DNA from: Arcobacter nitrofigilis
GTDB lineage: Bacteria; Campylobacterota; Campylobacteria; Campylobacterales; Sulfurovaceae
NCBI GenBank assembly: GCA_022736375.1
Contig: DZCE01000002.1
Coordinates: 732 to 64,731 of the forward strand
Reading direction: 5' to 3'
DNA: 64,000 nt
Position numbers and translations under genes: made by a program. The notes under the pieces were generated by a model. It was not told the DNA's origin and did no database searches. It saw nothing but the letters and a program-made list of their open reading frames with translations. Shown here one piece after another: positions 6,618 to 61,094 of this stretch (the stretch's first letter is position 1; each line of letters begins with the position of its first letter).

Positions 6618-6623
6618 AGTCAA
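6618..6623 (-). promoter_or_regulatory. Promoter-like core TTGACT; T of TGA is 33 nt upstream of the giant-ORF ATG
   Basis: Preceded by TTTTTTATTTTTC and the terminator hairpin. Member of the recurrent wTGAww family. Confidence 0.35.
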
Positions 6624-6624
6624 G

Positions 6625-6663
6625 AAAAATAAAAAAGTGGAGTGATTAATCACTCCACTTTTT
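6625..6663 (-). terminator. Intrinsic terminator between the 143-aa gene and the giant ORF
   Basis: Palindrome GTGGAGTGATT/AATCACTCCAC (6637-6658) is extended by A/T pairs. On the minus strand it is followed by TTTTTTATTTTT. The stop TGA of 6650-7081 lies inside the stem. Confidence 0.7.
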
Positions 6664-7081
6664 CATCATTAAAGTAGTGTCGAAATAGTATCAACCATCT
6701 GAGTGTTAATAGTATAGGCATCCTTCTTAATACATATTTTGTTCTTAGATCGGATAGAAAACTTAATATTGTACCATTTAAAATACGTTCAGATCGTAAC
6801 ATATAGTCTATAACGCTGTATTCGTTTTTCCTTATTAGATTGTCTAGCAATAGAGAAGATAGATCTAATATATTAATTATCTCTGAAAAGAAATTAGATT
6901 TTTCTATATCGTCTATTAACTCTTCGTAGACGTGTCTCGAGAATATAAGTACGTGTTTTTTACTATACTTATCCAGGAGTTCTATAAATCCAATATCTTT
7001 CGGCGCTGTTTTTAAACGTTTCTTTATCTCCTCTATAGCGAGAAGATTTGCCCCTATTAATCCTTTGAAACTATTTTGCAT
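6650..7081 (-). CDS. hypothetical protein, 143 aa
   Basis: ATG 7081 preceded by a GGTGAGGG SD. Overlaps the upstream gene by 25 nt. The stop TGA lies inside the terminator hairpin. No motifs recognised. Confidence 0.7.
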   Translation of the reverse strand: MQNSFKGLIGANLLAIEEIKKRLKTAPKDIGFIELLDKYSKKHVLIFSRHVYEELIDDIEKSNFFSEIINILDLSSLLLDNLIRKNEYSVIDYMLRSERILNGTILSFLSDLRTKYVLRRMPILLTLRWLILFRHYFNDEKVE

Positions 7082-7746
7082 AATCCCTCACCACCTTTAT
7101 TTGGTCTTTTTATCACAGATGACACATATTTTATATCCCCATGCGTTATAATGAAGATCAACTCGATAGTACTCATCTCCATTGTTAGTATACTTAGGAT
7201 ATTTATAAACGATTTCATTGTTAAATTCTTTTTCATAACAGTCTTTACTTCGTTTTTTCTCCAACCACATATAGTCGTGTCGCCATTGTCATACGAATAT
7301 ATAGTATTAATTCGTATATCAACATCCTGTATCTCCTTATTGAAAATACCTATAATATTTCTCATAAGTCTAGTTAATAGAGTAGATCTGGATTTACTAT
7401 CATTCGCAACAACCGAACTCGTTATTACAATTCCATGTGTATCGCCAAGATTAGTGATACACTCCAATTTAAAGTCATCTCCTAAATATAGCTCTATGAA
7501 ACTATTAAAAGATTGTAGAGTGAACGTCGGGTTCATGAGAACGGAAATAGCTTGTGATTTTGTCCATCCGTTAAATTTCTTTTTTAGTAGAAATCTATTT
7601 TGAATGGTTCTAGTTAGATTTCTACTAAGACTTATTTGTCTGATAAGTGTCATTAATACCTTTTTAAGCATACCTCCGGCAGATTGTTCTATCGACGACG
7701 ATAATAGTCTATCTAGAAATTCATCATCGTCTTTAGGTTTTGCCAT
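7057..7746 (-). CDS. hypothetical protein, 229 aa
   Basis: ATG 7746 with an AGGAGG SD. Overlaps the upstream ORF by 34 nt. The plus-strand ORF 7076-7603 is its antisense shadow. Confidence 0.7.
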   Translation of the reverse strand: MAKPKDDDEFLDRLLSSSIEQSAGGMLKKVLMTLIRQISLSRNLTRTIQNRFLLKKKFNGWTKSQAISVLMNPTFTLQSFNSFIELYLGDDFKLECITNLGDTHGIVITSSVVANDSKSRSTLLTRLMRNIIGIFNKEIQDVDIRINTIYSYDNGDTTICGWRKNEVKTVMKKNLTMKSFINILSILTMEMSTIELIFIITHGDIKYVSSVIKRPNKGGEGLCKIVSKD

Positions 7747-8123
7747 AATGTCGTCCTCCTAAATACTCTTTTTTTTGTTTTAATCAATGGATCTAAATGT
7801 TTTAACACCTCTTTGGTCTTGACCAGTATACACACCATGGGATATGGTATAATGTACATATCCGGCTCCGTCTTATTAACCCAAATATCTAATAGATTAT
7901 AGTACTTTTCTATACCCATCAAATATTCTTGTGTCTCACTAGGAGTACTTTGATGTACGAATATGACTACATATTCGTATCTAAATTTACTCATCTGAAT
8001 TAATTCAAGAGGATCCGCATCAGTGTCCTTCAGTTCATACACTTTCTCCAACCATAAATATAGGTCATATATTCCCTTATTATCATATGTGGGGACTTTG
8101 GTATATTTATATTTATATCTCAC
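7713..8123 (-). CDS. hypothetical protein, 136 aa, GTG start
   Basis: GTG 8123 is preceded by AAGGGAG 4-5 nt upstream and is the only start near the 5' end of the ORF. Confidence 0.6.
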   Translation of the reverse strand: MRYKYKYTKVPTYDNKGIYDLYLWLEKVYELKDTDADPLELIQMSKFRYEYVVIFVHQSTPSETQEYLMGIEKYYNLLDIWVNKTEPDMYIIPYPMVCILVKTKEVLKHLDPLIKTKKRVFRRTTLWQNLKTMMNF

Positions 8124-8165
8124 TCTACTCCCTTAAGTTATATTTCAATAGTATAATATGTAGGT

Positions 8166-8879
8166 CTATTTTAGCGGAACATCCGTTACAGTGAATCCTT
8201 TTTCATTAAATTTAGAATTTCCCTTAGAATTTAGATTACCGTTAATTGTTACATTGCTATTAAATACAACATTTGCGGTGTTAAAAGTTATCTCACCAGC
8301 TGATATCTCTACAGATGAACCATTTACATTCATAATAGCCTTACCTGTCTTTGTGCTAAAGTCGAATTTGAATACAGCTTTCTCGCCATTGTTATTTGTA
8401 GTATGTACAAACAGTTCTCCAGTTTTTGGCGAAATACCGACCGCCCATGAATTCTTTTGATCCCGTGGCACTTTCTGAGGTTTCTTTAAGTTACTAAATA
8501 GGAACAGTGCTTGTTCTTGGGGGATCAGATCCTCTTGCCCATCCCAAGATGACCAGTAGTAATCGTTGGATAGTATATTTTTCCATATAAATACCTCCAT
8601 ACCTTTTACCACTGTAGGCGGAAGAGCTCTATTAGAGTTCATAGATAACCAAGGCATTTTTAGACCCAACCCCACTTTCTTATTTGCACTTTGTTTATTT
8701 CCTTTACTATCCGTATATTTTGACTTAACATCTTTAGTCTTATCTATAGGCATATCTGCGTCAGGTACAACTGATTGTGATGGATTAACATCTAAATACA
8801 ATTGTCCTTCTTCCAAATCTTTCGTCGCTATACCTGTTCCCATTATAACAAGTATAGCACCATTACCAGAATTTGACAT
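8166..8879 (-). CDS. hypothetical virion protein, possible baseplate central spike/needle (gpV / gp5-tip-like C-terminus)
   Basis: The track start is TTG 8903; ATG 8879 (MSNSGNG...) has an AAGGAG SD 7 nt upstream. The C-terminus is a run of short beta-strand repeats (EISAGEITFNTANVVFNSNVTINGNLNSKGNSKF). It is the first gene of the operon that ends in the giant ORF. The functional call is inference only. Confidence 0.3.
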   Translation of the reverse strand: MSNSGNGAILVIMGTGIATKDLEEGQLYLDVNPSQSVVPDADMPIDKTKDVKSKYTDSKGNKQSANKKVGLGLKMPWLSMNSNRALPPTVVKGMEVFIWKNILSNDYYWSSWDGQEDLIPQEQALFLFSNLKKPQKVPRDQKNSWAVGISPKTGELFVHTTNNNGEKAVFKFDFSTKTGKAIMNVNGSSVEISAGEITFNTANVVFNSNVTINGNLNSKGNSKFNEKGFTVTDVPLK

Positions 8880-8907: not shown

Positions 8908-8913
8908 AATCAA
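8908..8913 (-). promoter_or_regulatory. Promoter-like core TTGATT at -33 of ATG 8879
   Basis: The context CATTTTAATTGATTTATATT is nearly identical to the 15196 site (TTTTAATTGAT). Confidence 0.4.
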
Positions 8914-8928
8914 TTAAAATGTTTGTAG

Positions 8929-8965
8929 AAAAAATAAGAAACATACTGAGTTTCTTATTTTTTTT
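8929..8965. terminator. A-tract/hairpin/T-tract element (bidirectional terminator-like) in a divergent intergenic region
   Basis: 11-bp stem AAATAAGAAAC/GTTTCTTATTT (8932-8942 / 8950-8960) with a 7-nt loop, flanked by A6 and T8. It lies upstream of both 8879(-) and 9093(+), so its role as a terminator is uncertain. Confidence 0.45.
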
Positions 8966-9092
8966 ACTTATGGTTAATCTATTTTAGATTAATAACTTTC
9001 GTTATTCCACATGTATTATATGCGACTATATTTATAAAATTATCCATCTTGAATATACTTAAATGATTGGACTTAAAATATAAGGAGAGTAT

Positions 9093-9506
9093 ATGGCGGT
9101 ATTTACAGAGACCGATAAACTAACATTAGATAATATCCATAAAAAGAGGATGGATATAGTTGAGAATATTTACAATAAAGTTATAAAAGAACCTGATTCG
9201 GAGTTGATGCTTCCTTTACTACAAATTATGCGTGACGTAGACGGACAGGTGATGAAGAAGGCTATGATAGCTCTTAAAGAAGAAGATCAGAAAACTGATA
9301 GTGATACCGTAACTATGATAGGTGAATTATTACGTCAACACAGTAGACATAGATCTGAGTTACCTACAATAGATGTCAACGAGATGGTTCGAGATCTACC
9401 AACATTAGAACAATTAGGTACTCTCCCTGTTCTAGGAGAGTATGAGGATAATACGAGCCAAATAACATTTGAAGAGATTATGGGTAAGGATGCGGAATAT
9501 GATTAA
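9093..9506 (+). CDS. hypothetical protein, 137 aa
   Basis: ATG 9093 with an AAGGAGAG SD. First gene of a plus-strand five-gene block. Confidence 0.7.
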   Translation: MAVFTETDKLTLDNIHKKRMDIVENIYNKVIKEPDSELMLPLLQIMRDVDGQVMKKAMIALKEEDQKTDSDTVTMIGELLRQHSRHRSELPTIDVNEMVRDLPTLEQLGTLPVLGEYEDNTSQITFEEIMGKDAEYD

Positions 9507-11529: not shown

Positions 11530-11565
11530 GTAGTTACCATGGATCGTTCGATCCATGGTAACTAC
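11530..11565. terminator. Bidirectional terminator hairpin between convergent genes
   Basis: Perfect inverted repeat GTAGTTACCATGGATCG/CGATCCATGGTAACTAC between the o-spanin stop (11509) and the 1107-aa gene stop (11600). Confidence 0.65.
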
Positions 11566-11599: not shown

Positions 11600-14500
11600 T
11601 TATATGATCAACATAGGTGGTCCGATAAATATATCCGAATCATCTATTATAGAATCGTTATCGTTATAAACATTTCCTTCGTTCGCGATATTTAACAATG
11701 TTGATTCAATTTGAATATCCTCCGTTAATATTCCGCCATCTCTCGCTATTACGTAACTTCCAGTAAATAATAGATCCATATCATCTTTTTTATTAAAGTT
11801 ATCTTTCGTCCCCGAGAGAGTCATGGTTAAATCTACAACGACATTATTATCCGTCTTTATATCCCGTATATAACTATCTAGCATTGTATAATGTTTAGTA
11901 TCAGATATTTTATTTCTAAATAAATTATTTTTTCCTATCGACATAGATGCCATATCCGTGGTTAAACTCGCCTCATATGTATCATTTTCATCTAATATGT
12001 ATACAATGGTTGGTAAGTCTTTAGATAAAGGTATTCCATTGTTAGTAGTACCTACCAAATGTGTAACAGGCCCTAAGTTATCAGATACTACATCCTGGTA
12101 ATCGGTACCTATAACCATTGTCCTCCTCATTGTAACACTATGTTCTAAATTCACATTAGGTGTATTGACGGCTAATATTTCGCTACCGGAAAATATATTA
12201 CCGGTAGAGGTAGTAGTGGTACTGTAAATCGTCCCGTTGATAACAGTACCGTCTGCCATATAACTATGTCTAGATCGTGATAATATACTAAACCCATTAC
12301 CAAGCTCATTACTAAGTTCCTGTGGATCATTCCCACTACTTGTACCACAAAAGTTGGATATTAATGGGCTGCCTATTCTAATAGTTCCGCCGTCATATGT
12401 ATACATACTGCTCCTTAACTCGGATCTAGATATGATCTTGATTATACTGTCGTCCGATTTATCTACATATATAGGTTCGGCATATCCATATAGATGTATA
12501 GGTATTGAATATTTAGATGATCCGGAACTAACCATACGTCCCCATTCGCTAATACGATATGTTGTATATATCGGTATATGGTCATATGGGATATATGTAC
12601 AGTAATCGAATTCCAGAGTCCCGTAACCTATTCTCATTATAGTATCCGTATCTGAAATACCTCCGTATATTCCATGTCTTAGAGTACTCATATCAGATGT
12701 CTTTTCTTGTCGTACCGGAATATATAGCATCGTGTTATCGTAATCGGACATAGTAACTACTCTAGAGATAACGATTTTACCGTCGTTAGCCATCGGATAT
12801 ATAAATGATGACGGATCCATGTATCGCATGTCTGCTTCGTCCGAATCATATATAGGATTTCCATTCTTATCGTAACCAATGATACGTCGACCTATGGTGT
12901 CGTTACCCATGGTATTGTAGTTAGGGTATACGGTGGTTATATTATATGGTGATGAGCTGGTCGTTTCTGTCGTAGTAGACATCATCTCTGTTGGTAGAAT
13001 TGTGTTTTTAATCTCTATATTAAATGTGAAGTCTATAGGTGGTAAGGTAAGTGTACTAGTGGCATCTAGAATCTTTGCCTCAGTATTACCGCTTAACAAT
13101 AGACTCCCTGGGGTCGGTATTGATACCAACTTATGGCTACTGTTAATGAGTATCTTAGTTAGATATGATGTTAGCTTATCCAACATGGACTTAATTGCAC
13201 CTAATTCCTTTATGTCCTTATTAGGCGAGAACTTATCGCCGAGTATCGCATGTATAATATCTATTAGGAACACATTCGGATCCGTCATATCGTTCAATAT
13301 CTTACTCTTTATCTCATACTTATTTATCAATACATCTGCAGAGTTCCCGTTATCGAAAAGTAGTTCGATAGGGGTAAATATAAGTTTAGTAATCTTAATG
13401 AGTACATCTTTTATATAAGTATTTGGTTCGGTATAGATTAACACTTTTGTAAATATATTGAATAATCTATACTCTTCAATATTACTTTCCATTTGCGATC
13501 GTTCCATAAAGTCTATATTAGCCATCGGTATGTTATTTATCAAAGGAGCCACTATATCTTTAACATAGATTGGTAGTTTAGATATGTAATCTAAAACTGA
13601 TGACAAATCTTTATTTATTCTGTTCCGCATATTTATTCCGGTTACAGTCGATAGATCTGGGATTCTACCACTTTTATGTAGGGTATATAGTAATATCGCT
13701 AGTAGTTCTTCGTTATTTGAAACTAAAATCGACTCACTAGTTTCCGTAGAGAATATATTGACTGTAAATTTTATTCTATTACTTAGTAGAGACCATATTA
13801 TGTATTCGATAACATCGAAGGTAGATAATATAATACTATCCGTAAATGATATTTCTCTTGTCTTCTCTAGGAGTAGATAGCTGGTGCCAGTTTGGATATG
13901 TGGCGTTCTTCTGAATAACAACTCTATATCCGACTTGAATTTATTCAATGTCCAATCATTCTTATTGGTAGAGTTTACGTATAGTAACTTCGTAAATTCA
14001 TCGACACTTATTGATCTATTTTCTTTGTTAGTAATGTCTGTTAGTCTAATAACAGGGTTATATGGTTCGTCTGACCCCGTAATATTGTTTTGTTCTTTCA
14101 TAAGAGTAACGTTGGATATATCGTATCCGGAACTGTGTATTAGATTATCGACTATCATGTCGAATGATTTTCTACTACCAAGTTCTTTATTCAGGTAGCC
14201 TATATTTAGATATAGCCACTGCCGGGAATATTTAGATAAGTACATATACTCTTCCGACAGTTCCTTGTTAGATTTTAATTTCATATCCACTAGATATGAG
14301 TGGGCATATATTGTATTTATCTTGGAAGCTCTTAAATTAACTATCTTCAAGCTAATACCATTATACGCATTGGCCATAAACAACGGTAGATAATTGTCAT
14401 GGTATAGTGCAAATTTCTCGTTTATATGTGTCTTATATACATTCTTAATATATACTTCCAACTGACTTATTATATACTTTTCATTTTCCTCCAACAGTAG

Positions 14501-14923
14501 ACTATCATATCCTAATATTTTAAAATCAGAAGATGATATTAATTCGTCTATTGTCATCGTCGATAATACACCGTTTATAAAAATCATATTATCACTATAA
14601 ATACTACTATATGTTCCGGCATCTCTTTTTAAGAGTTCTCTTTTTGTCAATGGATATTTTTCTATATTAGCTCGATTTAGTAGAATTGTTACACCGTCAT
14701 CAATCGTTTTAATATATATATATTCATCATTCCGGTGGTATTTACCGGATAGATTTAGATAATACTTCCACGTGTATCGATCCGGGGATATCGATGTACC
14801 TAACTCATATTTAGGTAGTTGTTTTAATTCAATATATTTCCCGAGTATATCTAGTTTGAATACTATCGAATAGGCTAGTCTTGACGTATCTTTCATAAAT
14901 TTATTTATACTTTCGATATTCAT
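11600..14923 (-). CDS. large hypothetical protein, 1107 aa (probable virion/tail component)
   Basis: ATG 14923 with an AGGGGGG SD. Monocistronic unit bracketed by hairpins at 11530-11565 and 14979-15003. No catalytic motifs seen. Confidence 0.6.
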   Translation of the reverse strand: MNIESINKFMKDTSRLAYSIVFKLDILGKYIELKQLPKYELGTSISPDRYTWKYYLNLSGKYHRNDEYIYIKTIDDGVTILLNRANIEKYPLTKRELLKRDAGTYSSIYSDNMIFINGVLSTMTIDELISSSDFKILGYDSLLLEENEKYIISQLEVYIKNVYKTHINEKFALYHDNYLPLFMANAYNGISLKIVNLRASKINTIYAHSYLVDMKLKSNKELSEEYMYLSKYSRQWLYLNIGYLNKELGSRKSFDMIVDNLIHSSGYDISNVTLMKEQNNITGSDEPYNPVIRLTDITNKENRSISVDEFTKLLYVNSTNKNDWTLNKFKSDIELLFRRTPHIQTGTSYLLLEKTREISFTDSIILSTFDVIEYIIWSLLSNRIKFTVNIFSTETSESILVSNNEELLAILLYTLHKSGRIPDLSTVTGINMRNRINKDLSSVLDYISKLPIYVKDIVAPLINNIPMANIDFMERSQMESNIEEYRLFNIFTKVLIYTEPNTYIKDVLIKITKLIFTPIELLFDNGNSADVLINKYEIKSKILNDMTDPNVFLIDIIHAILGDKFSPNKDIKELGAIKSMLDKLTSYLTKILINSSHKLVSIPTPGSLLLSGNTEAKILDATSTLTLPPIDFTFNIEIKNTILPTEMMSTTTETTSSSPYNITTVYPNYNTMGNDTIGRRIIGYDKNGNPIYDSDEADMRYMDPSSFIYPMANDGKIVISRVVTMSDYDNTMLYIPVRQEKTSDMSTLRHGIYGGISDTDTIMRIGYGTLEFDYCTYIPYDHIPIYTTYRISEWGRMVSSGSSKYSIPIHLYGYAEPIYVDKSDDSIIKIISRSELRSSMYTYDGGTIRIGSPLISNFCGTSSGNDPQELSNELGNGFSILSRSRHSYMADGTVINGTIYSTTTTSTGNIFSGSEILAVNTPNVNLEHSVTMRRTMVIGTDYQDVVSDNLGPVTHLVGTTNNGIPLSKDLPTIVYILDENDTYEASLTTDMASMSIGKNNLFRNKISDTKHYTMLDSYIRDIKTDNNVVVDLTMTLSGTKDNFNKKDDMDLLFTGSYVIARDGGILTEDIQIESTLLNIANEGNVYNDNDSIIDDSDIFIGPPMLII

Positions 14924-14978
14924 TATGGTCCCCCCTTTATTATAAATCAGAGAAAAACTTTATTAGAGTAAAAAAAAT

Positions 14979-15003
14979 AGGAAGAACCATGATGGTTCTT
15001 TCT
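14979..15003 (-). terminator. Hairpin plus T8 on the minus strand, upstream of the 1107-aa gene
   Basis: AGGAAGAACCAT/ATGGTTCTTTCT. The minus strand reads hairpin-CCTATTTTTTTTAC. No minus-strand gene lies upstream of it. Confidence 0.4.
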
Positions 15004-15195
15004 ACCGTCATTATATTATATTAAAAAATGTTATCCTGATTGTTGTTATGTAAATACAAAGTAATATATGTCATATTCTATAGAAGATCAAAATAACTAC
15101 GGTTATCTGGTTTTATAACCAATATTAGTATACTGAATTTAAAAAAACAATTACATACTTTCTAAATTTTAATAAAAGAATACATAGCTTTTTAA

Positions 15196-15201
15196 TTGAT
15201 A
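15196..15201 (+). promoter_or_regulatory. Promoter-like core TTGATA at -33 of ATG 15230
   Basis: Context GCTTTTTAATTGATATTTTA. Same 38-nt distance from TTAATTGAT to the ATG as at 8908. Confidence 0.4.
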
Positions 15202-15229
15202 TTTTAATTAAAAAAGCAAGGGAGTATAA

Positions 15230-17851
15230 ATGAATACTAAGAATGCAATTTCTGAGCAAGAGAAGGTAATAGAAGAATTCCGGAAGTTTTTTATTCCAGC
15301 AGAGCGGATCAATGGCGAATCGATAGTTGATTATTCTGATCTATTAAATGTGGCTCATTCGACAGCTGGTATCATCGGTAATAACTATGATACATTGGAT
15401 CTGTTTCCGGAGATACGAATAGCACTTGGGCTTATTTCAGGATTTATTATCTCTCCAAATGGTGGTAACGAAGGGGTATCGAAGAAATATCATATCTTAG
15501 ACACTAAACTAAATCAGGGGTTATTATCCAAATGCGAAAAAACTATACAGTCTTTTATAAATAAGGAGATGAGCGATATAGATTTATATAACGAGATTTG
15601 GTCTATACGTGTAACAGACGGTGCTGTGGCTAGGCTTGTTCTAAATAGAGGAGAATTGATTAATTTTTTAAAGAAGATAAAGTCTAATTCCAGCGATGTG
15701 ATAACGATGAGTAAAGATCCGATAAGTGGATTCAAGCAGAATCCACTTATCGACGACGTTATTACATTATCGGTCACCGACAAAATTAAACTTCCAGATA
15801 ATAAAAATTCTACCTCAATAACATTATTTCAGGACGTTCAGGATGATGTAATAAAAAACTGGGGGTTAAATATCCTGTCCGACCCTATAATCGCTGGGTT
15901 GAACTATATGGAGATGGAAGAGAGGGCAACTTTACTATCTAAAAGTACGTCTCCGGGGAGAGATGGTGTATTAAGTTCAGAAATAATTAGTAAAATAGAT
16001 GAACTTGTAAACGCTAGGCAAGATAATAGTTTAGCTATTAATGGTCTTAATCATGGTATACATGTTCCAAAAGGCGATAAAGAGGGGGGGCATATCTACA
16101 TCAGATTACCAGCATCTTCAATTGTCCCTATTATTAACAAGAGCGATCTTAATAAACCAAAAGCTTTTATGGTTGTATTAGACGAACTATATTCTCCGTA
16201 TGATGTAACTAACTTTAGAGGCAACACAAACTACCTTGAGAAAATAATAAATAACAGGATACAAGGGAATAACATAGATAAAAGTGATGGTCTTAAAGTA
16301 AAGATTCTAAATAATATGCCAGGCCTATATAGAGAGGTTATAAGAAGACATATAAAAGATAGACTATATGAAATAATGGGTTCTAAAAATATAGATGTGG
16401 AACTACCAAATGATGTATTGGAAGTTCTATTCAACAGGGGATTAAGTGCGAAGAAAGCCAATATATTGTTCCTAACCACCGAACAGTTATCTTATCAAGC
16501 TTTGGAATATAGAAAAAATGGAACTGGAGCGAGTCTATTGGAGAGGGTGAATCTATTACTTAGTTTTAGATCAGTTGTTTTCTTACACAATATCCATACC
16601 TCAATGAGGAACGCGATACCTAGGAAAACTGTAAAATATATAATGCCCGATTCGGTTAAAGATCCAGTTAAAGCAGGTAAAGACTTCATAAATATAACAA
16701 ACTCGAAAAATGCAGGACTACTTCCAACCGGAGATATGAATCTAAGAGCGTTGATGCAAAATATGGCGAACCAAGGAGTGACGTATATTCTAGAACATAT
16801 AAATTTCCCTAAGATAGAAATAAGTTATGAGGAATCAACTACTGCTATTCCGGTAAACACCGAACTTGAAAACATGCTTATGGAGAGGATGATTGCCGCA
16901 TTAAATATAAAGCCAAGTATGATAACTAGTAGGGCAGCGTTCGCTACTGAATTAAAACAGGGTGAAAATGATATAAATCGTATGATAAGCGATAATCAGT
17001 ACAAATTTATAGAAAGTCATAGCAAATTTGTACAAATGGTGCTTAGTAATAATATGTACTTAATCAAAAAGCTCGAAGATATAATAAGGGCAGATAAAGC
17101 TCAAGTATTTAACGCGATACCTAAAAATGTCAGGATGGGATTAGATAGTAACATATTGACGGAGGATGAGGTGATACGATATGTAGTCTATCATATGATT
17201 ATTGCGAACACTAAATTAGTATTACCTAGTTTGGAAAAAGCAAATAATGATCCACTAAAAGAGTCATATATTAACTTCAAGACCGTTGTAGATGAGATGT
17301 TCGCAGAGTTCCTAGATAATGGGGCAGCTATACCATCCTCGATAACCGAGAGATATGGCAGTGATTTAGATGGTATGGTATACTTATTCAAATTAGGACT
17401 ATCGTTAGATTGGTGGGATAAAAACGGATTCATGAATGGCGCTGTACTGGATACATTTACGACCAATGAAGATGGATTATCTGAAAATCCAATACTGAAT
17501 AAGGCTCATATGTTCTTCCATAATTTAGCATTATCATATCAAAATGCGGAAAAACAAAGACTTGATATCGAGTCTAACGAAAAGGCCGCAAATGTTAAAA
17601 ATGATAAAAAAGTACAAAAATTAAAAGAGAAACTTGGAGATAAAGAGGATAGAAAAGATATTGATACCACCGGTTCCGGTGATATAGACCAAACAATAGA
17701 GGAGTCTTCAGATAAATCAAAAGATGATAATGATGACGATATAGACCAAACAATAGAGGAGTCTTCAGATAAATCAAAAGATGATAATGATGACGATAAT
17801 CCTATAGATAATAAAGCTGGTGTAAAAAAAGATAGCGATACAGATATATAG
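15230..17851 (+). CDS. large hypothetical protein, 873 aa, with an acidic repeat C-terminus
   Basis: ATG 15230 with an AGGGAG SD. The last ~90 aa are strongly acidic and include two perfect 19-aa copies of DIDQTIEESSDKSKDDNDD. The function cannot be supported; the size would fit a jumbo-phage portal but no motif confirms this. Confidence 0.6.
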   Translation: MNTKNAISEQEKVIEEFRKFFIPAERINGESIVDYSDLLNVAHSTAGIIGNNYDTLDLFPEIRIALGLISGFIISPNGGNEGVSKKYHILDTKLNQGLLSKCEKTIQSFINKEMSDIDLYNEIWSIRVTDGAVARLVLNRGELINFLKKIKSNSSDVITMSKDPISGFKQNPLIDDVITLSVTDKIKLPDNKNSTSITLFQDVQDDVIKNWGLNILSDPIIAGLNYMEMEERATLLSKSTSPGRDGVLSSEIISKIDELVNARQDNSLAINGLNHGIHVPKGDKEGGHIYIRLPASSIVPIINKSDLNKPKAFMVVLDELYSPYDVTNFRGNTNYLEKIINNRIQGNNIDKSDGLKVKILNNMPGLYREVIRRHIKDRLYEIMGSKNIDVELPNDVLEVLFNRGLSAKKANILFLTTEQLSYQALEYRKNGTGASLLERVNLLLSFRSVVFLHNIHTSMRNAIPRKTVKYIMPDSVKDPVKAGKDFINITNSKNAGLLPTGDMNLRALMQNMANQGVTYILEHINFPKIEISYEESTTAIPVNTELENMLMERMIAALNIKPSMITSRAAFATELKQGENDINRMISDNQYKFIESHSKFVQMVLSNNMYLIKKLEDIIRADKAQVFNAIPKNVRMGLDSNILTEDEVIRYVVYHMIIANTKLVLPSLEKANNDPLKESYINFKTVVDEMFAEFLDNGAAIPSSITERYGSDLDGMVYLFKLGLSLDWWDKNGFMNGAVLDTFTTNEDGLSENPILNKAHMFFHNLALSYQNAEKQRLDIESNEKAANVKNDKKVQKLKEKLGDKEDRKDIDTTGSGDIDQTIEESSDKSKDDNDDDIDQTIEESSDKSKDDNDDDNPIDNKAGVKKDSDTDI
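17681..17798 (+). repeat. 57-bp x 2 perfect in-frame tandem repeat (acidic 19-mer)
   Basis: 17681-17737 and 17738-17794 are identical (GATATAGACCAAACAATAGAGGAGTCTTCAGATAAATCAAAAGATGATAATGATGAC). They encode DIDQTIEESSDKSKDDNDD at the C-terminus of the 873-aa protein. Confidence 0.95.
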
Positions 17852-43523: not shown

Positions 43524-43534
43524 ATAATCTTATC

Positions 43535-49452: not shown

Positions 49453-49481
49453 AATGGCTCCTTCGTATTTAATATTAACTT

Positions 49482-49664: not shown

Positions 49665-50429
49665 ATGAAACTTATCTTATTTATCTTATTCTTAACGGCG
49701 AATCTATTAGGGAGCGCGGTAAAGACAACAATACCAACGCGAGCAATGACGTATCTACCAGAACTGTATATAGCTATTGATAAATACTGGCCTGGATTTA
49801 GTTTACCTCCGTTAATAGCAGCTCAGATAGAGCAAGAGACATGCTTTAGCATGACACATAATCGATGTTGGAATCCAAATGTAGAATTTAAAGGATATAA
49901 AGTTGACTCTACATCCGGACAACGTTATTTAAAAGAACATGGGGTCGGATTACCTCAAATAACTAGGGCAAATTATATCAGAAATGGTAGAGTCGTAGAA
50001 AAATTTGATGCATTATCCGAGATGAAATCACATTTCCCTAAAGTACTAACAGATGTAAGTTGGAATAACATAAAAGGGCGACCAGATCTACAAATGGCTA
50101 TAATCACACTTAAGGATAAACAAAATTACAACACCTTTAAACTATATGCTAAAGATGAATTAAATAATTTAATATTCATGTTAGCGTCCTATAACGGAGG
50201 TGTTGGTGGATTATTATCGGAGATAAAATACTGTAAACGCCAAATGGATTGTAATCCTGGAATATGGTTTAATAATGTGGCTAATGTAGCGCTGAAATCT
50301 AAAAAGCCGCTATGGGGTAATAAGAGTCCATGGGAGATAAACAGAGATTATCCACATTTAATCCTTACGATTAGATTTAATAAATACTGTTTCGATTTTT
50401 TAAATCGCGATAGTATAACAAAAAAATAG
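49665..50429 (+). CDS. secreted lytic transglycosylase (SLT family), probable endolysin
   Basis: N-terminal signal/SAR-like sequence MKLILFILFLTANLLGSAV. SLT motifs IEQETCF (catalytic Glu), GLPQIT (GLMQ-like) and LASYNGGVGG (AYNxG). AAAGGAGAA SD. Confidence 0.8.
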   Translation: MKLILFILFLTANLLGSAVKTTIPTRAMTYLPELYIAIDKYWPGFSLPPLIAAQIEQETCFSMTHNRCWNPNVEFKGYKVDSTSGQRYLKEHGVGLPQITRANYIRNGRVVEKFDALSEMKSHFPKVLTDVSWNNIKGRPDLQMAIITLKDKQNYNTFKLYAKDELNNLIFMLASYNGGVGGLLSEIKYCKRQMDCNPGIWFNNVANVALKSKKPLWGNKSPWEINRDYPHLILTIRFNKYCFDFLNRDSITKK

Positions 50430-50466: not shown

Positions 50467-51210
50467 CTATCTCATTTCATTAAGCGGGACAATCGGGTTC
50501 GCGATAAGTGTGGTATATATTCTCCAATCATCGTAGTCAATATCTGCTTGTTTAGCAAATGCCGCTAAAGTAAACATTCTCTTAATCTCTCTGGTAATAG
50601 TAGGGTTATCGTACGTTAGACTACCTTTCTTTTCACTTCTAATATAAGATAATTTATCGGACACCTCTATATCATAATCATTTACATATAGACATGTAAG
50701 TATGAAACATACATCAGTATGGAATTCAATACCCTCGACAAATGGAAATCTGATTAGTATATCTTTTTTACATACCATCCCATTTATTACCGCCCTTGGG
50801 GCGGTAATAAGTTTTCTAATTGTAGGCATATGTGGATATCTGGTATTTATTCCAGCCAACCATATATCGCCGGTAAACTCTTCTGGTAAATATACCAACG
50901 TATCATCCTGATCAAGCTTACACACATATTGATATGAGGCATTTGCTATAGCTATATTACTAGCCAAAGCATCTGACCCGGAAGGAATTTTATCCTCATC
51001 GAACCCTATATGTACTAATTTGATGCCTTGATTTGAACATCTATTAGATAATACAGGTAGCATATAGTGTACATCATTTGATTTACCATCATTTACTAGT
51101 ATAATCTCCCCGACAACACTCTTTAATGATATCGCGGAAGACACCGCCCTACTAAGTTCACCTATTGCTGGATTACATACAGATATGTAAACGGTTATAT
51201 ATTGTGACAT
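50467..51210 (-). CDS. family-2 (GT-A fold) glycosyltransferase
   Basis: N-terminal ITVYISVCN...ILVNDGKSND and the DxD-type motif KLDQDDTLV are typical of the GT2 nucleotide-sugar binding half. 247 aa. Confidence 0.65.
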   Translation of the reverse strand: MSQYITVYISVCNPAIGELSRAVSSAISLKSVVGEIILVNDGKSNDVHYMLPVLSNRCSNQGIKLVHIGFDEDKIPSGSDALASNIAIANASYQYVCKLDQDDTLVYLPEEFTGDIWLAGINTRYPHMPTIRKLITAPRAVINGMVCKKDILIRFPFVEGIEFHTDVCFILTCLYVNDYDIEVSDKLSYIRSEKKGSLTYDNPTITREIKRMFTLAAFAKQADIDYDDWRIYTTLIANPIVPLNEMR

Positions 51211-51265
51211 TTTATTATCCTTTTATTTAAATTATTCATAAATATAATATATAATTGAAAATATG

Positions 51266-51675: not shown

Positions 51676-53589
51676 TTATGTGAGTTTTTGTCCAACTAAA
51701 GTTGGATTTGTTTTTGTATTAAAGGATAGTATATCTCCATCCTCAAGCTCTACTATAGACGGTATAGATAAGTGTTTATCATTTAATACTTTTCTATTTG
51801 TCCACATATACGTTTTGTTATTGAATATCATGGATATAGGTATCGAATTGTTATCTAATGTATAGACAACTATCTCACCTCCTCTATTAACGAGTATCCT
51901 CTTAGCATTATCATGTACGTTAGTATCACTTAATGATCTTAAAACATTCGTAATGTCACCATTTAAACTAGAACGCATTACCTTCCTATCATTAAAAACA
52001 AGTAAGATCTGCTTAGCGTCGATATTGACAACGCCAGGTAACGCTTCGTTACTAAATTGTTGATCAAAATATACATGCTTAACCAATCCGGACATATTAA
52101 CAAATAGGAAATCTAAATACCCCGTGGAAATATCCCTGGTTAGTAAACCTATAGTATTAGAATTGGCAATAAAAAGAGATATATTATCATCTTCGCGGTA
52201 TTCTGGTTCGACAACCTCAGATCTAAATCCCGGATATACTTTGGTATAGCTATTAAGATTTATCTCTTTAGCCCAATTAAATTCACCAGTAAATTTGTTG
52301 AAATGGACGAGGTATACTAATCTGTAAAATTTGACAACAGAAGTATCGTTCTTATTTCTAATAAGAATCGACAATGCTAGAAACGCATCATTAATCCTTA
52401 ATATAATATATTCTTCTATCGAACTCCCGTCAGATACTAGTTTAGATGGTAATTGTAAAGTACTGAATTTGTCTTTGGTTACTATATCCTCTTCGTCAAA
52501 ATTACACATCACCATAGTTGCCGTCTCGATATTCAAAAGCGGTATCATACCATCCTCCACCTCCTCACTCTGACATTGTCCTGTTTTAAACGGAATATCA
52601 AAATTTGGTATTGTTATTAACGAGTTAACAAATGGGCGTTTTCTGACATATCGAAAATGTGATTCTGTGTTAACATTTACACTAAATGTTTGAGTTTCGA
52701 TTGGTATATTCTTAAATATTGACTCAACTGTCATGTGATAGGATGTATTAGATAACTCTGTTACTTTAATTATCTCCACAATACTATCCATATCAGTCAA
52801 TGACCCGGAGGCTATAATACTACCATCTAAATCTTGTAGAGTGAATTTACTAATTTGATGATCGTTTCTGTTATGTGAAACTCTCAGAAAATTACTCGCC
52901 GAATATTGTTCAAATCTAAAATCCTCTAACTCGACATTTATTCCGTACCTCTTCTTACTTCTTATCGTAAATGGCTTTGCCGACGGATTGCTCCTATTAT
53001 TACCTATAGAGGTAAAAGTGACCATTAACACATATGGTATATTCTCACCTAAATTATGAACTGGTCCAATTTTGAAAGAGTAGAGCAGGGCTTCCTCTTC
53101 GACCACAAGTTCATATACAATATCTCCAGTAGAAACATCTCGTATTTGAGCTATCGTCGATTTATGTTTATCGGAACCGGCATACATAGTAAATTCAGAT
53201 ATAGACACTAAAACTTCTCTGTTATTAATGAACTCAATATCTGGTACATCCACGTTTGGGGTGACAATGAGTACGTTACCGATGGTGTATCCTCCGCCAC
53301 CTGAGATAATCGGTTGAGGGACATCCCATTCCTGACGACTATCTAGCTCCGGATTATCATAAAATGGCTTTGATGTATATAGATAACTCTTCCCATATCT
53401 CGTATCAAGCGTTAGTGCTAGCCTATCTTTAAATTCTACAGAATTAGTCTCCTCCCTAACGTATTTGCCGTTTCTATAGTCCTCCATTGTCTCAAATACT
53501 CTCCAACTCATACCCTTTATATCGGGATCTGAAGTAGGACAATCAATTCTGAACTCAACGAACCCTGGTACTGGTATAGTTAATGACAC
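51676..53589 (-). CDS. hypothetical beta-rich virion protein, 637 aa, GTG start (module shared with 26620-28491)
   Basis: GTG 53589 lies 5 nt after AAGGAG. W.VPQPI at aa 88-94, LVSI at 127-130 and FTMYAGSDKHKSTIAQIRDVSTGDIVYE at 133-160. Confidence 0.55.
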   Translation of the reverse strand: MSLTIPVPGFVEFRIDCPTSDPDIKGMSWRVFETMEDYRNGKYVREETNSVEFKDRLALTLDTRYGKSYLYTSKPFYDNPELDSRQEWDVPQPIISGGGGYTIGNVLIVTPNVDVPDIEFINNREVLVSISEFTMYAGSDKHKSTIAQIRDVSTGDIVYELVVEEEALLYSFKIGPVHNLGENIPYVLMVTFTSIGNNRSNPSAKPFTIRSKKRYGINVELEDFRFEQYSASNFLRVSHNRNDHQISKFTLQDLDGSIIASGSLTDMDSIVEIIKVTELSNTSYHMTVESIFKNIPIETQTFSVNVNTESHFRYVRKRPFVNSLITIPNFDIPFKTGQCQSEEVEDGMIPLLNIETATMVMCNFDEEDIVTKDKFSTLQLPSKLVSDGSSIEEYIILRINDAFLALSILIRNKNDTSVVKFYRLVYLVHFNKFTGEFNWAKEINLNSYTKVYPGFRSEVVEPEYREDDNISLFIANSNTIGLLTRDISTGYLDFLFVNMSGLVKHVYFDQQFSNEALPGVVNIDAKQILLVFNDRKVMRSSLNGDITNVLRSLSDTNVHDNAKRILVNRGGEIVVYTLDNNSIPISMIFNNKTYMWTNRKVLNDKHLSIPSIVELEDGDILSFNTKTNPTLVGQKLT

Positions 53590-53620: not shown

Positions 53621-53626
53621 TATCAA
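53621..53626 (-). promoter_or_regulatory. Promoter-like core TTGATA at -36 of GTG 53589
   Basis: Context ATATTCTTTGATAATATTTTA, 17 nt after the hairpin 53643-53672. Confidence 0.3.
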
Positions 53627-53642
53627 AGAATATGAAAGGTGT

Positions 53643-54799: not shown

Positions 54800-54927
54800 A
54801 TTTTTCCTTTTTAGTTAATTTCAAAGTTATAATATATAAACAGATATAATTATAAAGCGTAAAAAAGAAGATTTTAGTTCCCTATACCTCGATCTATAAT
54901 AAATACTGAATATATGTTTTCGGACGT

Positions 54928-58128: not shown

Positions 58129-58905
58129 TCATCGTACGTACAGCTGTTCCAGGCTTCTACGGGCCGATAATTCAGCCATTAAAATATCCGGTAGATTAGC
58201 CACCTGCGATAACATTGTAGCCGTTAGCCCGCCTGAACATACACCGTCTATACATATAGAATTGGTCATAGATAACGCGGCGTAGTCCATCGAATCTCTT
58301 TTATTGGCGCCGTCATATGCCCCGCGTAAAACCTGGTCCCAGGTGATAACCCTAGTGAATCTTCTTACCTCGTTACCACCGACCATGGTTTTCTTAGCGA
58401 AACCTCTTATAGACATTGATGTATTTGAGTATGGGTTCTTCAGTGTCTCTAAAAATTGAGAGCCAAAATTACCTTCTGGTTTCAATCTTAATACTATAAG
58501 AATGATATTACCGGTAGATTCGACACATCTCGTATCTTTCTTACCGATATCGACGGCTAATATATCCTTAATGTGTGCAGACTTTCTATCTATTAGTATA
58601 GTACTCAGACGAGCAGCAACCACTTGATCAGGCGTACCAGGTGGTACCTGCGGGTGATCTAGCTCTGATGACAACACCCCTTTATCGAGATAATCCATCA
58701 ACTGTGTATTTTTACCGAAAATCTCTGATGTATACGGGAATGATACCCAATGTCCAGGGGCCATCTCCACGGCCACATTAAATGCCCCAGCGTTTATTAA
58801 CCAGTACCCATTTTCATCAGGTGAAAAATCACCAACTAACAACGACGCATATTGCGGATCCTTCTTCTTTAGCTCTTCTTGTGTCTGTACTCTAATTTCT
58901 ATCAT
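58129..58905 (-). CDS. prohead (maturation) serine protease, T4 gp21 family
   Basis: GVLSSELDHPQVPPGTPDQ (His84) matches T4 gp21 QALGELNHPPRANVDP. NTSMSIRGFAKK matches GVSSRGLGS (catalytic Ser). 258 aa. Sits three genes from a virion-type RNAP beta gene, as recalled for phiKZ gp175-gp178. Confidence 0.75.
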   Translation of the reverse strand: MIEIRVQTQEELKKKDPQYASLLVGDFSPDENGYWLINAGAFNVAVEMAPGHWVSFPYTSEIFGKNTQLMDYLDKGVLSSELDHPQVPPGTPDQVVAARLSTILIDRKSAHIKDILAVDIGKKDTRCVESTGNIILIVLRLKPEGNFGSQFLETLKNPYSNTSMSIRGFAKKTMVGGNEVRRFTRVITWDQVLRGAYDGANKRDSMDYAALSMTNSICIDGVCSGGLTATMLSQVANLPDILMAELSARRSLEQLYVR

Positions 58906-58916
58906 AAAAAAATCTC

Positions 58917-59624
58917 CTATTTATTTCTTAAAATCTTTTCAACATCAGAGGCCTCTATCTCCTCTTTGTTCGCTGTCCTAGATATTAACTCTTCTCTACC
59001 ATCTTTGAAGTAAGATGTCGAAAAGATAGCAAAATTATCTCTTACGTAAGATCTATCTTCGATGTTAACGAATACCGCCTTTATCTTATCCGGAGCGTAC
59101 CTATAGTATAGTTTTGGGTTATTCTCTTGTCTACCTAGAACAGATAGAAGTAAATCTACCTCTCTGAAATTCTTTAGAATTCCAGCATCAGTTGTTCTAG
59201 ATATACTATTAAGTAAACTCCTAGCAATCTCATAAGTAACGAACTCCGGGAACTTACCTTTCTTTATTACTTCGTGAAAGAACTTTTCAACTAGAGAGCC
59301 TGACATAGAAATTTTCTCCATCATAATAGGTTCCCCTTTGGAAAATATTACATGGATGTATTTCTCCCTAGTCGATACTCTCCTAGAAAAAAGCGTTATT
59401 TGATTGGCTAGGGGGAGAGTCATATACTCTCCTTTTGAATTAACAATTGCGAATAGACCGATCGTCTCGATAAACTTACTCATACTAGCAAGTCCTCTTT
59501 CGAAATAAAAACTAGGTATTGCTATGTTTATATCCATATCAGCATAATATAAGCCATCTTTCACCGTAGCAAATTTTATACTCTTCTCGCTCTTCAGTAA
59601 CTCGAATACTTTAATATCAGACAT
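58917..59624 (-). CDS. hypothetical protein, 235 aa
   Basis: ATG 59624, 8 nt after the upstream stop, with a weak SD. Confidence 0.6.
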   Translation of the reverse strand: MSDIKVFELLKSEKSIKFATVKDGLYYADMDINIAIPSFYFERGLASMSKFIETIGLFAIVNSKGEYMTLPLANQITLFSRRVSTREKYIHVIFSKGEPIMMEKISMSGSLVEKFFHEVIKKGKFPEFVTYEIARSLLNSISRTTDAGILKNFREVDLLLSVLGRQENNPKLYYRYAPDKIKAVFVNIEDRSYVRDNFAIFSTSYFKDGREELISRTANKEEIEASDVEKILRNK

Positions 59625-59632
59625 GGTACTTA

Positions 59633-61060
59633 CTAACTATCAATCTGCATGATAAACTTGTTAATAAGGAACTTGGATATAAGATCGGCTTTTGTAAGGG
59701 TAGCTATTGCGGTAGCATCATACTCCGTAGCATTCTTATATTCAGGATCATTATTATATTTACTAAACGTCTCCTCTATCAGCGCTATATTCGTATCCGC
59801 CAAATACACTTCGTTCATTATCCTACTGACCATATACTCCACATTAAAGTAATCTATTCTTTTATAGATTCTAAAGTACAAATCCTTAAGCCTGGTTAAC
59901 ATCAAGTCTAGTTTATCGTTATCATGAACATTGTAGAGTTGTCCAAAGTTATTTATGACATAACTCTTATAGAAAGCTTGAGCTTCTAGAACGGAAGAAG
60001 ATAATCTACTCTCTATACTTCTTGCCTTTATAGCCTCCATTTCCTCGTTATACTTAACTATATTCTCCAATAAAAACGGCACCTTAATGTCGTTCACATG
60101 GACTGCTTTTACAGCACAATATGCCAATAATTCATCTATGTTTGGTAATTTAGGCGCGGCCTTAGCGTAATTTATAGGGACAACGAAGACCTGATACATA
60201 TCACCTACCTTAATATACCTATAAACTATATTACCATTACCGGCCTCGTCATTTAGAGATGTCCTAATTTTTATAATAGCGTCTGCTAACTCTTTCTTCT
60301 TGACATATAATGCGTCGGATGCCCTCAAATCCGGAGTAGAAGCTACCACCTCTAATAACAACATAGCTATGAATACCAATCTAGGGTCTATATTCAATAT
60401 AGTATAATCTTTCGATAAAATGGTCTCAATAGCCTTCGTTATATTAGCTTGTGTTACAGCGTTTCCGGTAGTAGTCACGAAAGCTTTCAATATCTGTCTC
60501 TTTTGTAGAGATTTAATACTATCTATTCTATTAAGTAAATCATCTAGCGTAACAAAATTATTAATAAAATATTGTAGAACTTCAGCAGGATTGTATCTAT
60601 TAGCGCTTTTAGCAATAGGATTAAATTCGATATCCTCATGTACGAGATAATTCATCTCATCCGGAACATTAAGAGTAATTATCTCGTACTTAATACCAAT
60701 ACTAGACACATCAAGGGTGATATACTTTAATAATTCATCTACCGCCTGTTTTTTCATAGTAGCTATTGTGGAAAAATAAAATATAAATTCCTCCTCAATG
60801 TCAGAAGCTATCGTACCAGTATCGATCCTGGATTCCATAAAAAGTTCAGCATGATAACTTGTACTAATCAGGTACCTGGAAGCAAAATTATAATTACATA
60901 TACGTTTAGCCTCCTCTAGAATACTAGATTTAGGATCGTAATTTAAGTTAATACCACCATTTCGTTTAAATCTATTCACTATCGCTAGTGTATATTTTGT
61001 TATCTTTTCACTCATCTCTAGACGAGATTTATTTTCCAGATTTAAGTCTCTAACGGCCAT
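59633..61060 (-). CDS. hypothetical protein, 475 aa
   Basis: ATG 61060 with an AAAGGAGAAA SD. Confidence 0.65.
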   Translation of the reverse strand: MAVRDLNLENKSRLEMSEKITKYTLAIVNRFKRNGGINLNYDPKSSILEEAKRICNYNFASRYLISTSYHAELFMESRIDTGTIASDIEEEFIFYFSTIATMKKQAVDELLKYITLDVSSIGIKYEIITLNVPDEMNYLVHEDIEFNPIAKSANRYNPAEVLQYFINNFVTLDDLLNRIDSIKSLQKRQILKAFVTTTGNAVTQANITKAIETILSKDYTILNIDPRLVFIAMLLLEVVASTPDLRASDALYVKKKELADAIIKIRTSLNDEAGNGNIVYRYIKVGDMYQVFVVPINYAKAAPKLPNIDELLAYCAVKAVHVNDIKVPFLLENIVKYNEEMEAIKARSIESRLSSSVLEAQAFYKSYVINNFGQLYNVHDNDKLDLMLTRLKDLYFRIYKRIDYFNVEYMVSRIMNEVYLADTNIALIEETFSKYNNDPEYKNATEYDATAIATLTKADLISKFLINKFIMQIDS

Positions 61061-61088
61061 AGTTTCTCCTTTGTTTTCTAATGTATTT

Positions 61089-61094
61089 AATCAG
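61089..61094 (-). promoter_or_regulatory. Promoter-like core CTGATT at -33 of ATG 61060
   Basis: Context CCTCTTTACTGATTAAATA, 13 nt after the hairpin 61107-61134. Confidence 0.35.

Follow-up and report, generated by a model that had tools for sequence, protein, structure and literature searches.

The 64-kb window analyzed here (positions 732 to 64,731 of contig DZCE01000002.1, assembly GCA_022736375.1; 32-39% G+C) belongs to an uncultured phiKZ-like jumbo phage, for which metagenomes are the sole source. A signal made up of a T-rich run and TGA recurs upstream of its genes, and the sequence suggests that this signal probably represents promoters for the two multisubunit RNA polymerases (RNAPs) of the phage itself, divided into two classes. 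Class I has the consensus T(-8)nT(-6)T(-5)nnnT(-1)G(+1)A(+2), after which the sequence is usually T/A-rich, and class II has the consensus (C/T)ATAT(T/A)AT-N5-TG, an AT-rich box centered near -10 with the G six bases past the box. The original prediction, made from this DNA before the present analysis, had listed 21 hexamers of the form wTGAww as the recognition cores of one promoter family. We propose that this hexamer would be the start-site region, T(-1)G(+1)A(+2), served by either of two alternative upstream elements. Class I takes in 17 of the 21 listed sites along with others newly found, and in the remaining four (33082, 49482, 51234 and 54819) the hexamer is where the TG of a class II site lies; the ATAT(T/A)AT-N5-TG motif of that class is separate and far better defined. 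The two flavors of hexamer, TTGATA and ATGAA, which had been thought to mark the classes, do not give the true split; this lies in the upstream element, either TnTT at -8 to -5 or an ATATTAT box at -13 to -7. The hexamer does hold some class information, with class II leaning to TGnAA and class I to TGAT(A/T).

The listed sites were compared with an independently built list of 49 genes whose starts are backed by Shine-Dalgarno (SD) sequences. The core-to-start distances given earlier agreed with these start codons, and 20 of the 21 hexamers read back exactly; the one placed at 45453-45458 (-) is off by one, since that position reads TGAAAA and TTGAAA lies at 45454-45459. TTGTAA at 33082-33087 is as listed and has the TG, but not the TGA core. 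Comparison with controls, as originally suggested, gave a mixed answer for the hexamer. Its intergenic frequency is not raised over coding DNA ([ACT]TGA[ACT][AT] at 0.0085 per nucleotide (nt), versus 0.0080 in coding sense and 0.0065 in antisense), but its position is locked beyond dinucleotide shuffles: of the 28 upstream regions that are 39 nt or longer, 20 have it between -36 and -24, against 5.4±1.9 in shuffles (maximum 13 in 2000). Eight sites had been said to share one spacing; TG does lie exactly at -33 in eight, TGA in only seven, and the shuffle maximum for any one position was five. The T-rich run turned out to be sharper than claimed, with TT exactly at -6/-5 from the G in 19 of the 24 TGAs located at -38 to -22, compared with 3 of the 26 TGAs at other positions of these regions (Fisher 2e-6). 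Since the pattern was tested on the very data to which it had been fitted, these P-values are optimistic. Information content anchored on the start codon showed merely a weak T-T-G bump at -34 to -32, and the signal became clear once the regions were anchored on TG. An expectation-maximization motif search recovered TTAATTGA, TTTTATTTGATA and CATATTTTAT amid many low-information AT-rich solutions and was indecisive by itself. An artefact of in-frame stop codons was considered and rejected: -33 is in frame, yet outside that mode only 4 of 13 sites are.

When 17 class I sites were aligned, T(-6) and T(-5) were present in all 17 and T(-8) in 14; T(-1)G(+1) was invariant and A(+2) was fixed by the anchor. 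T(+3) and A(+4) occurred in 11 and 12 of the 17, respectively, and the bases at -3 (seven A, two C, one G, seven T) and -2 (four A, four C, nine T) varied. The gap between the two parts is specific, as upstream-sense matches to TT-Nk-TGA numbered 23 at k=3 versus 4-9 at k=0-2 and k=6-9. TnTTnnnTGA matched 51 times in the 128 kb of strand, and 15 of these matches fell in the 2.8% that is upstream-sense intergenic space; intergenic DNA that is not upstream-sense had none on either strand of the window. Spacer shuffles gave 2.26±1.46 matches (maximum 8) versus 14 observed, and 15 of the 48 matches having a same-strand start downstream lay 24-44 nt before it. Class I is not reducible to T-richness.

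The class II pattern is rarer. ATAT[AT]AT-N5-TG matched 11 times in the window, with eight matches in upstream-sense intergenic DNA and none in other intergenic DNA, and spacer shuffles had a mean of 0.31 (maximum 4) versus seven observed. Its gap is equally specific: nine upstream-sense matches had N6-G, against zero to five for other gaps, and a G lies exactly 6 nt past the box in each of the eight (C/T)ATAT(T/A)ATA copies that upstream-sense spacers contain. Four of the class II sites, with their G at 8146, 9008, 18356 and 21880, had been missed by the original prediction.

Sites are strictly oriented toward the downstream gene. Each of the five divergent pairs (8879/9093, 14923/15230, 22596/22675, 28491/28636 and 49452/49665) has one site facing each way, and neither pattern matches in the spacers between convergent genes of the window. 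Many class I sites come right after the hairpin and T-run that close the previous unit (6667-6628, 43577-43546, and the hairpins before 36521, 42648 and 61092); phiKZ likewise has a compact terminator-promoter arrangement (PMC10914365). The two convergent spacers contain perfect palindromic hairpins of 16-17 bp with flanking T-runs, at 11530-11565 and 17939-17976, which are probably bidirectional terminators.

The motifs could be examined in one independent genome. Among 1.84 billion representative proteins, an exhaustive HMMER search for the PhiKZ_MCP-family capsid protein (MCP), encoded at 33161-35293, found a single relative, at 29% identity. The relative's contigs (39% G+C, other samples) are gene-for-gene colinear with 28.5-42.6 kb of the window, and 42.7-45.4 kb may have its counterpart in three more genes upstream. 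These 18.5 kb (37 kb of strand) were not used to define the motifs and form the only independent test set. TnTTnnnTGA matched there 20 times, with seven matches in the 2.5% that is upstream-sense intergenic (binomial 4e-7; shuffles 0.41±0.63), and the TT-Nk-TGA scan again peaked at k=3, with nine matches versus zero to five. The class II pattern had one match on the 37 kb of strand, and this lay precisely upstream of the ortholog of gene 31983-33053. In a TG-anchored comparison of five orthologous spacers, identity was concentrated at -7 to +4 and the rest had diverged. T(-1) lies at -22 to -29 in the relative; the -33 mode, which had been read as a leader of fixed length, is therefore a trait of this genome and not of the motif.

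Both polymerases are represented in the window, as originally claimed, by parts of each, namely gp71-74-like and gp123-like genes of the non-virion enzyme (whose gp55-like and gp68-like subunit genes are not seen in the window) and a gp178-like gene of the virion enzyme. The split subunits are encoded at 45522-49452 and from 61135 past the window end, and the phage RNAP has about 25% identity to that of any sequenced phage. The two genes at 45522-49452 (-) are homologs of phiKZ gp71-73 and gp74 with PHROG RNA polymerase beta matches; 47404-49452 matches the PHIKZ071 chain of PDB 7ogp (3.9e-10) and 45522-47420 the PHIKZ074 chain (1.3e-19). The gene at 30417-31955 (-) is a probable homolog of phiKZ gp123, the beta-like non-virion subunit by which TATG is read in phiKZ, as judged by its match to phrog_2943 'polymerase' (1e-24), the MCP-gp122-gp123 synteny and a colinear BLASTP match (1e-4); a PDB sequence search gave no direct match for this protein. 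The virion-RNAP subunit at 61135-64000 (-) comprises the C-terminal 955 codons of a gp178-like protein of 1364 amino acids (aa), the gene start being outside the window. The full protein matches phrog_3148 at 1.4e-134, is syntenic with phiKZ, and had no match to non-virion RNAP structures in a PDB sequence search.

The classes differ in the genes that they precede. Class I is found before baseplate, virion structural (two), MCP, gp177-like, gp178-like virion RNAP, endolysin-like and RNase-like genes, as well as the operon 36489->35366 just upstream of MCP. Class II precedes the PHIKZ071/074 homologs (49452->45522), the gp122/gp123-like pair (33053->30417) and five units of small proteins without PHROG matches. 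Because class I is found before virion, virion-RNAP and lysis-type genes, we suggest that it would be the middle or late promoter of the non-virion RNAP, driving the structural, virion-RNAP and lysis-type genes in units that often begin right after the terminator of the preceding one. Class II, because its core and 6-nt gap match the early promoter of phage AR9 and its gene content matches early units, would be the early promoter for the virion-packaged RNAP and would drive the non-virion RNAP along with small orphan genes. The proposal that the sites are phage-RNAP promoters is thus supported by their strand specificity, their location upstream of genes and on both sides of divergent pairs, and their conservation in a distant relative; the start site and flavors that went with it are not. 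By analogy with the AR9 early, AR9 late and phiKZ late promoters, all of which start at a purine after a conserved T, we lean slightly toward the G within the core as +1. Leaders predicted from this G would be short and would keep the SD throughout: they measure 16-45 nt with a mode of 32, with the SD retained in all, and 21-28 nt in the relative. The rule of box, six bases and G puts +1 on the G of the listed core, except at 49482, where it falls three bases later.

Several observations weigh against this interpretation. The class I consensus is short (about seven fixed bases) and 36 matches occur within genes, so it cannot suffice alone. Four sites assigned to class I (20781, 22623, 45457 and 9065) are without T(-8). 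A TTGATAA(T/G)AT subset also fits an extended -10 pattern, TGnTAnnnT, which is mildly enriched upstream (13 versus 6.2±2.4, P=0.004). At five or six class I sites the T-run doubles as the tail of a terminator hairpin, and the T's there may be present for termination. The gene-class support is thin, with most proteins unannotated, and the motifs were refined on the same 64 kb on which they were then tested. Finally, the relative has a class I site before its gp123-like gene, so a rule that non-virion RNAP genes are only early is not clean, and the same unclean pattern is found in 201phi2-1 (PMC11512511). This site (TCTTAAATGA), at 10419-10473 of the relative's contig L016, is set in a hairpin; the orthologous spacer of the window is just 27 nt long and has CTATTATAATGAAT instead. 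Promoter placement before the gp123-like subunit differs between the two genomes.

The hairpin tails bring up an explanation in which the T-run is the terminator tail of the upstream gene and the TGA a product of chance or a stop codon. Hairpin and T-run do adjoin TGA at 6621, 36521, 42648 and 43534, and are near it at 61092, and the TGA at 44530 is a true stop codon. However, ten sites lie in divergent spacers, where nothing terminates; 8911 and 14948 have a separate terminator T-run upstream of the T-tract of the motif; and the TT-N3-TGA spacing is exact, above dinucleotide shuffles and repeated in the relative. The divergent-pair sites and the spacing scans largely refute such a by-product, which we regard as very improbable. 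That the signal acts at the RNA level, the U-rich tract and UGA marking where an RNase of the phage or host processes the leader, or else serving as a ribosome standby site or translation enhancer, would fit a position locked to the start codon and SD, as well as the ribonuclease-like protein encoded at 24268-25689, and RNase E/Y and S1 typically target single-stranded leaders that are AU-rich. We nevertheless think this improbable. Divergent pairs need a promoter per side, where no oriented element other than these motifs recurs; sites sit directly after strong terminators, so there would be little or no upstream RNA for processing; and the core and spacing of class II match those of a promoter type that has been defined by biochemistry (PMC5312081).

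Transcription by the host polymerase from extended -10 promoters of the sigma-A/sigma-70 type seems to us no more probable than an RNA-level signal. The TG would then be -15/-14, TAnnnT the -10 and the start about 17 nt before the ATG, and apart from the mild enrichment of the pattern given above, six class I sites fit (15198, 22623, 28611, 43534, 49639 and 53624) and the class II box, TATTAT/TATAAT, is similar to a -10 hexamer. These are just 6 of about 20 class I sites, however, and at the -26 to -28 sites among them (28611, 49639 and 22623) a start 7 nt past the hexamer would be inside or after the SD. The invariant TT at -6/-5 would have no role, there are no -35 partners, and phiKZ-type phages with both RNAPs transcribe without the host enzyme (PMC7598289). 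Full sigma-70-type sites, with -35/-10 pairs 16-18 nt apart, were not enriched over dinucleotide shuffles in three 20-kb scans (99 versus 115.5, 107 versus 95.7 and 86 versus 84.8). A reading of the core as a sigma-70 -35 is excluded, as had been argued in the original prediction, because the -10 would land on the SD. The remaining alternative is that prediction's own single family, in which one RNAP recognizes the hexamer as its core, or two RNAPs do so by way of its flavors, and transcripts start 5-12 nt downstream to give a 20-25 nt leader. TG(A) is indeed the one element common to all sites, the hexamer holds the class information already described, and most transcripts would keep their SD with a start up to about 12 nt downstream, as +1 and GG are at least 14 nt apart in all sites but one. 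Such a start is marginal at 25705, where a start 12 nt downstream lands within the SD. The hexamer is also as frequent in coding DNA, specificity comes from upstream elements at exact spacings, and the flavors cut across these elements: ATGAAA at 36518 and ATGACA at 28520 have a T-tract, whereas ATGAAT at 51234 and ATGAAG at 49482 have an ATATTAT box, with the +1 at 49482 set by the box three bases past the listed TG. As known jumbo-phage promoters start at G or A directly after T (PMC5312081, PMC7598289), the G within the core is the more likely start, and we consider the single family unlikely.

Under the favored reading of two promoter classes, the individual class I sites are distributed as follows, each with its predicted G(+1). 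TTTTTCTTGA at 6620-6629 (-) adjoins the terminator hairpin 6667-6628 and has its G at 6621, 32 nt before the ATG (6589) of a giant gene. TTTTAATTGA is found twice, at 8910-8919 (-) with its G at 8911 before a baseplate-assembly-like gene (8166-8879), and at 15190-15199 (+) with its G at 15198 before a virion structural gene (15230-17851). A weak class I-like site absent from the earlier list, ACTTAAATGA at 9057-9066 (+), G 9065, precedes gene 9093-9506, and TTTTCTCTGA at 14947-14956 (-), G 14948, precedes a gene of 1107 aa (11600-14923). The 306-nt divergent spacer 14924-15229 contains no plausible open reading frame (ORF). Upstream of the 14923-gene site it has a terminator-like hairpin and T-run (AAGAACCATCATGGTTCTT CCTATTTTTT) at 14982-15000 (-), which suggests an unannotated short transcript or a transcription insulator. 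Class I-like GGTTAAATGA at 20780-20789 (-), G 20781, lies before an SbcC-like gene (18426-20753). The divergent pair 22596/22675 has class I-like GATTATTTGA at 22622-22631 (-), G 22623, before 21925-22596 and class I TTTTCGTTGA at 22638-22647 (+), G 22646, before 22675-23541. ATTTTTCTGA at 25704-25713 (-), missed earlier, precedes the ribonuclease-like gene 24268-25689, and its G at 25705 is a mere 16 nt from the ATG (25689).

Orthologous sites are kept in the relative for TTTTTAATGA at 28522-28531 (-), G 28523, before 26620-28491, and for TCTTACTTGA at 28603-28612 (+), G 28611, before a DUF7194 gene (28636-29238). Between these two class I sites, in mid-spacer, is a GC-rich hairpin (GACTAGTCGGTCTGATGACCGAATAGTC region) at 28540-28600. 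The MCP gene (33161-35293) is preceded by TATTAAATGA at 35319-35328 (-), G 35320. TTTTATATGA at 36520-36529 (-), G 36521, lies before the operon 36489->35366 (second gene 35366-35908), and TATTTACTGA at 42647-42656 (-), G 42648, before 41653-42618; both adjoin a hairpin and are kept in the relative at the orthologous position. TTTTTTTTGA at 43533-43542 (-) is fused to the terminator 43577-43546, with its G at 43534, 45 nt before the ATG at 43489; it fits better than the listed TTGAAT at 43518-43523 (GATTATTTGA, 43520-43529), which may be a second site. A class I-type match that was absent from the earlier list, TATTATTTGA at 44529-44538 (-), lies 40 nt before the ATG at 44489, and its TGA is the stop codon of gene 44529-45428, which itself has class I-like GATTAATTGA upstream at 45456-45465 (-), G 45457. 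TCTTCTTTGA at 49631-49640 (+), G 49639, precedes an endolysin-like gene (49665-50429), TATTCTTTGA at 53623-53632 (-), G 53624, precedes 51676-53589, and TCTTTACTGA at 61091-61100 (-), G 61092, precedes a phiKZ gp177-like gene (59633-61060). On assembly L010, class I-like CGTTTATGTGATAA, with its T at -28, lies before the gp178-like virion-RNAP gene.

The class II sites that had been missed are all on the minus strand, their predicted G(+1) being those given above. CATATTATACTATTGA at 8145-8160 lies before an orphan-gene operon (8123->6650), and CATATAATACATGTGG at 9007-9022 is followed about 85 nt later by a strong terminator (hairpin 8967-8925 and T-run), because of which the site probably gives a short early transcript, a candidate non-coding RNA. 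Promoter plus early-terminator small RNAs have been reported for phiKZ and 201phi2-1. Within 8921-9022 (-), an 88-nt stretch forms three hairpins (-21.6 kcal/mol, z = -6.1), separate from and upstream of the baseplate-gene class I site. TATATTATAAAAATGG at 18355-18370 is before an orphan gene at 17980-18345. Its G is only 11 nt before the ATG of the longest ORF, which is without an SD; an internal ATG at 18288, with a good AAGGA SD and a leader of about 68 nt from 18356, is probably the true start. CATATAATAGAACTGT at 21879-21894 precedes an orphan gene (20866-21852). A possible variant, CATATTTTAT-ACATAT-G at 26535-26551 (-) before the orphan gene 25785-26498, has a box two T longer and so was left out of the count. 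Among the listed sites, CATATTATATTATTGT at 33084-33099 (-), G 33085, includes TTGTAA, lies before the gp122-/gp123-like genes (33053->30417) and is the only class II site having an ortholog in the relative, where it is kept. At 49481-49496 (-), overlapping the listed ATGAAG, the box CATATTAT is followed by AATGAA and G, with +1 predicted at 49482 by the box-6N-G rule, before the non-virion RNAP genes 47404-49452 and 45522-47420. TATATTATATTTATGA at 51236-51251 (-), G 51237, includes ATGAAT and precedes an orphan gene (50467-51210), and TATATTATAACTTTGA at 54821-54836 (-), G 54822, includes TTGAAA and precedes orphan genes (54799->53665). ATATAATACTTATGTA at 23997-24012 (-), inside gene 23559-24254, is the sole intragenic sense match to the full class II motif with TGnA, and could be either an internal promoter or a chance occurrence.

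Isolated as the lineage is, gene order around MCP is kept with the relative and, blockwise, with phiKZ. Two phiKZ blocks are in agreement, gp178-gp177-gp176-gp175 and MCP gp120-gp122-gp123, and a 180-aa gene (35366-35908) sits beside MCP where phiKZ has gp119. A prohead protease of the Peptidase_S80 family is encoded at 58129-58905. Close relatives were not found by megablast of 12 kb and tblastn of MCP against 50,697 phage records, nor by an IMG/VR scan. In a word-indexed search of 5.8 billion proteins, MCP recovered itself alone and the virion RNAP recovered itself and one partial match at 25% identity. Pfam searches of ten large window proteins, and Rfam and tRNA scans, gave nothing informative. 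Further assemblies of this phage stop within about 1.3 kb of the right and 0.6 kb of the left window edge and add little sequence; over common sequence they share at least 99.7% identity, and they vary too little for single-nucleotide polymorphism footprinting. The giant gene at 2-6589 (-) has a product of at least 2195 aa as far as the window reaches; on assembly L005 it extends to 2407 aa, where the contig end still cuts it. Within it are a tandem repeat of 141 nt (47 aa; 3.6 copies, 98% identity) and a second repeat of 30 nt in five copies; 160-670 and 4520-4670 of the window are repeat regions, and assemblies from other samples end in or near this repeat region.

Promoter elements of this kind are to be expected, and what we describe is a computational prediction, although a well-supported one, and no new mechanism. 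A late-type consensus that is readable from sequence, with fixed spacing, is kept across two genomes at 29% capsid identity. If our reading is right, class I would be a second, more informative example of how a sigma-less non-virion RNAP chooses its start site, the AR9-type early box would reach a very distant lineage, and contigs of uncultured jumbo phages could be given early or late classes and operon limits by a practical rule. It is also possible, although we offer this tentatively, that the non-virion RNAP of this deep-branching phiKZ-like lineage uses a discrete two-part late promoter, T(-8)nT(-6)T(-5) with T(-1)G(+1)A(+2), and that the T(-1)G(+1) initiator is ancestral and common to both RNAPs, with the upstream element diverging. 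Recognition of T-G would presumably be through the beta-lobe pocket seen in phiKZ gp123.

Among known promoters, class II is closest to the early promoter of the Bacillus jumbo phage AR9, AAATATATATTAT-(6N)-G+1 (PMC5312081); virion-RNAP early promoters related to phiKZ are likewise AT-rich boxes with the start 6 nt downstream (PMC5312081, PMC7598289). AR9 early and class II share the ATAT(T/A)AT core, the 6-nt gap to G and a box centered near -10, as well as their position before the non-virion RNAP and small hypothetical genes and their rarity elsewhere in the genome. They differ in that the class II block is shorter at the 5' side, (C/T)ATATTAT and not AAATATATATTAT, and that class II, which is known from sequence alone, has in addition a conserved T(-1) and A-rich +3/+4. 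Early motifs before hypothetical genes and late motifs before structural genes have been described in 201phi2-1 (PMC11512511). Compared with bacterial sigma-70/sigma-A promoters, including the extended -10 TGnTATAAT, there is a TG followed by TAnnnT in a subset of sites and a class II box like a -10, but here there is no -35, the SD spacing is incompatible at several sites and the full consensus is not enriched.

The late promoters offer a looser comparison for class I. That of AR9, A(-11)ACA-(6N)-T-A/G(+1), is recognized by gp226 on the dU-containing template strand (PMC5312081, PMC9209446). It is likewise in two parts, with a 4-nt upstream element at a fixed gap from a T-purine start, but has AACA at -11 to -8 where class I has TnTT at -8 to -5; AACA-N6-T[AG] is not enriched in the upstream regions of the window (3 versus 3.1±1.8 in shuffles). 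In phiKZ the late promoter is T(-3)A(-2)T(-1)G(+1), with all four bases required, and gp123 reads the non-template strand (PMC7598289, PMC12809450). Class I resembles it as a very short element over the presumed start, with T(-1)G(+1), found before structural genes including the MCP-adjacent operon and often fused to the previous terminator, and a gp123-like gene is present in the window as well. The TATG core mentioned in the original prediction is thus an analogue rather than the same motif: TATG upstream of genes in the window is not enriched (22 versus 18.3±3.9 in shuffles), -3 and -2 are variable in class I, and the fixed T(-8)nT(-6)T(-5) and A(+2) are absent from phiKZ. How a 4-bp TATG gives phiKZ its specificity has been left open (PMC7598289, PMC12809450), and sequence-only detection is reported to fail for late promoters of this type. 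By virtue of its fixed TnTT and A(+2), class I can be detected from its sequence. Class II thus appears to be a further example of the AR9/phiKZ early-promoter type, and class I appears to join a T-G start of known kind to TnTT in a late consensus that is new, with TnTT and A(+2) specific to this lineage.

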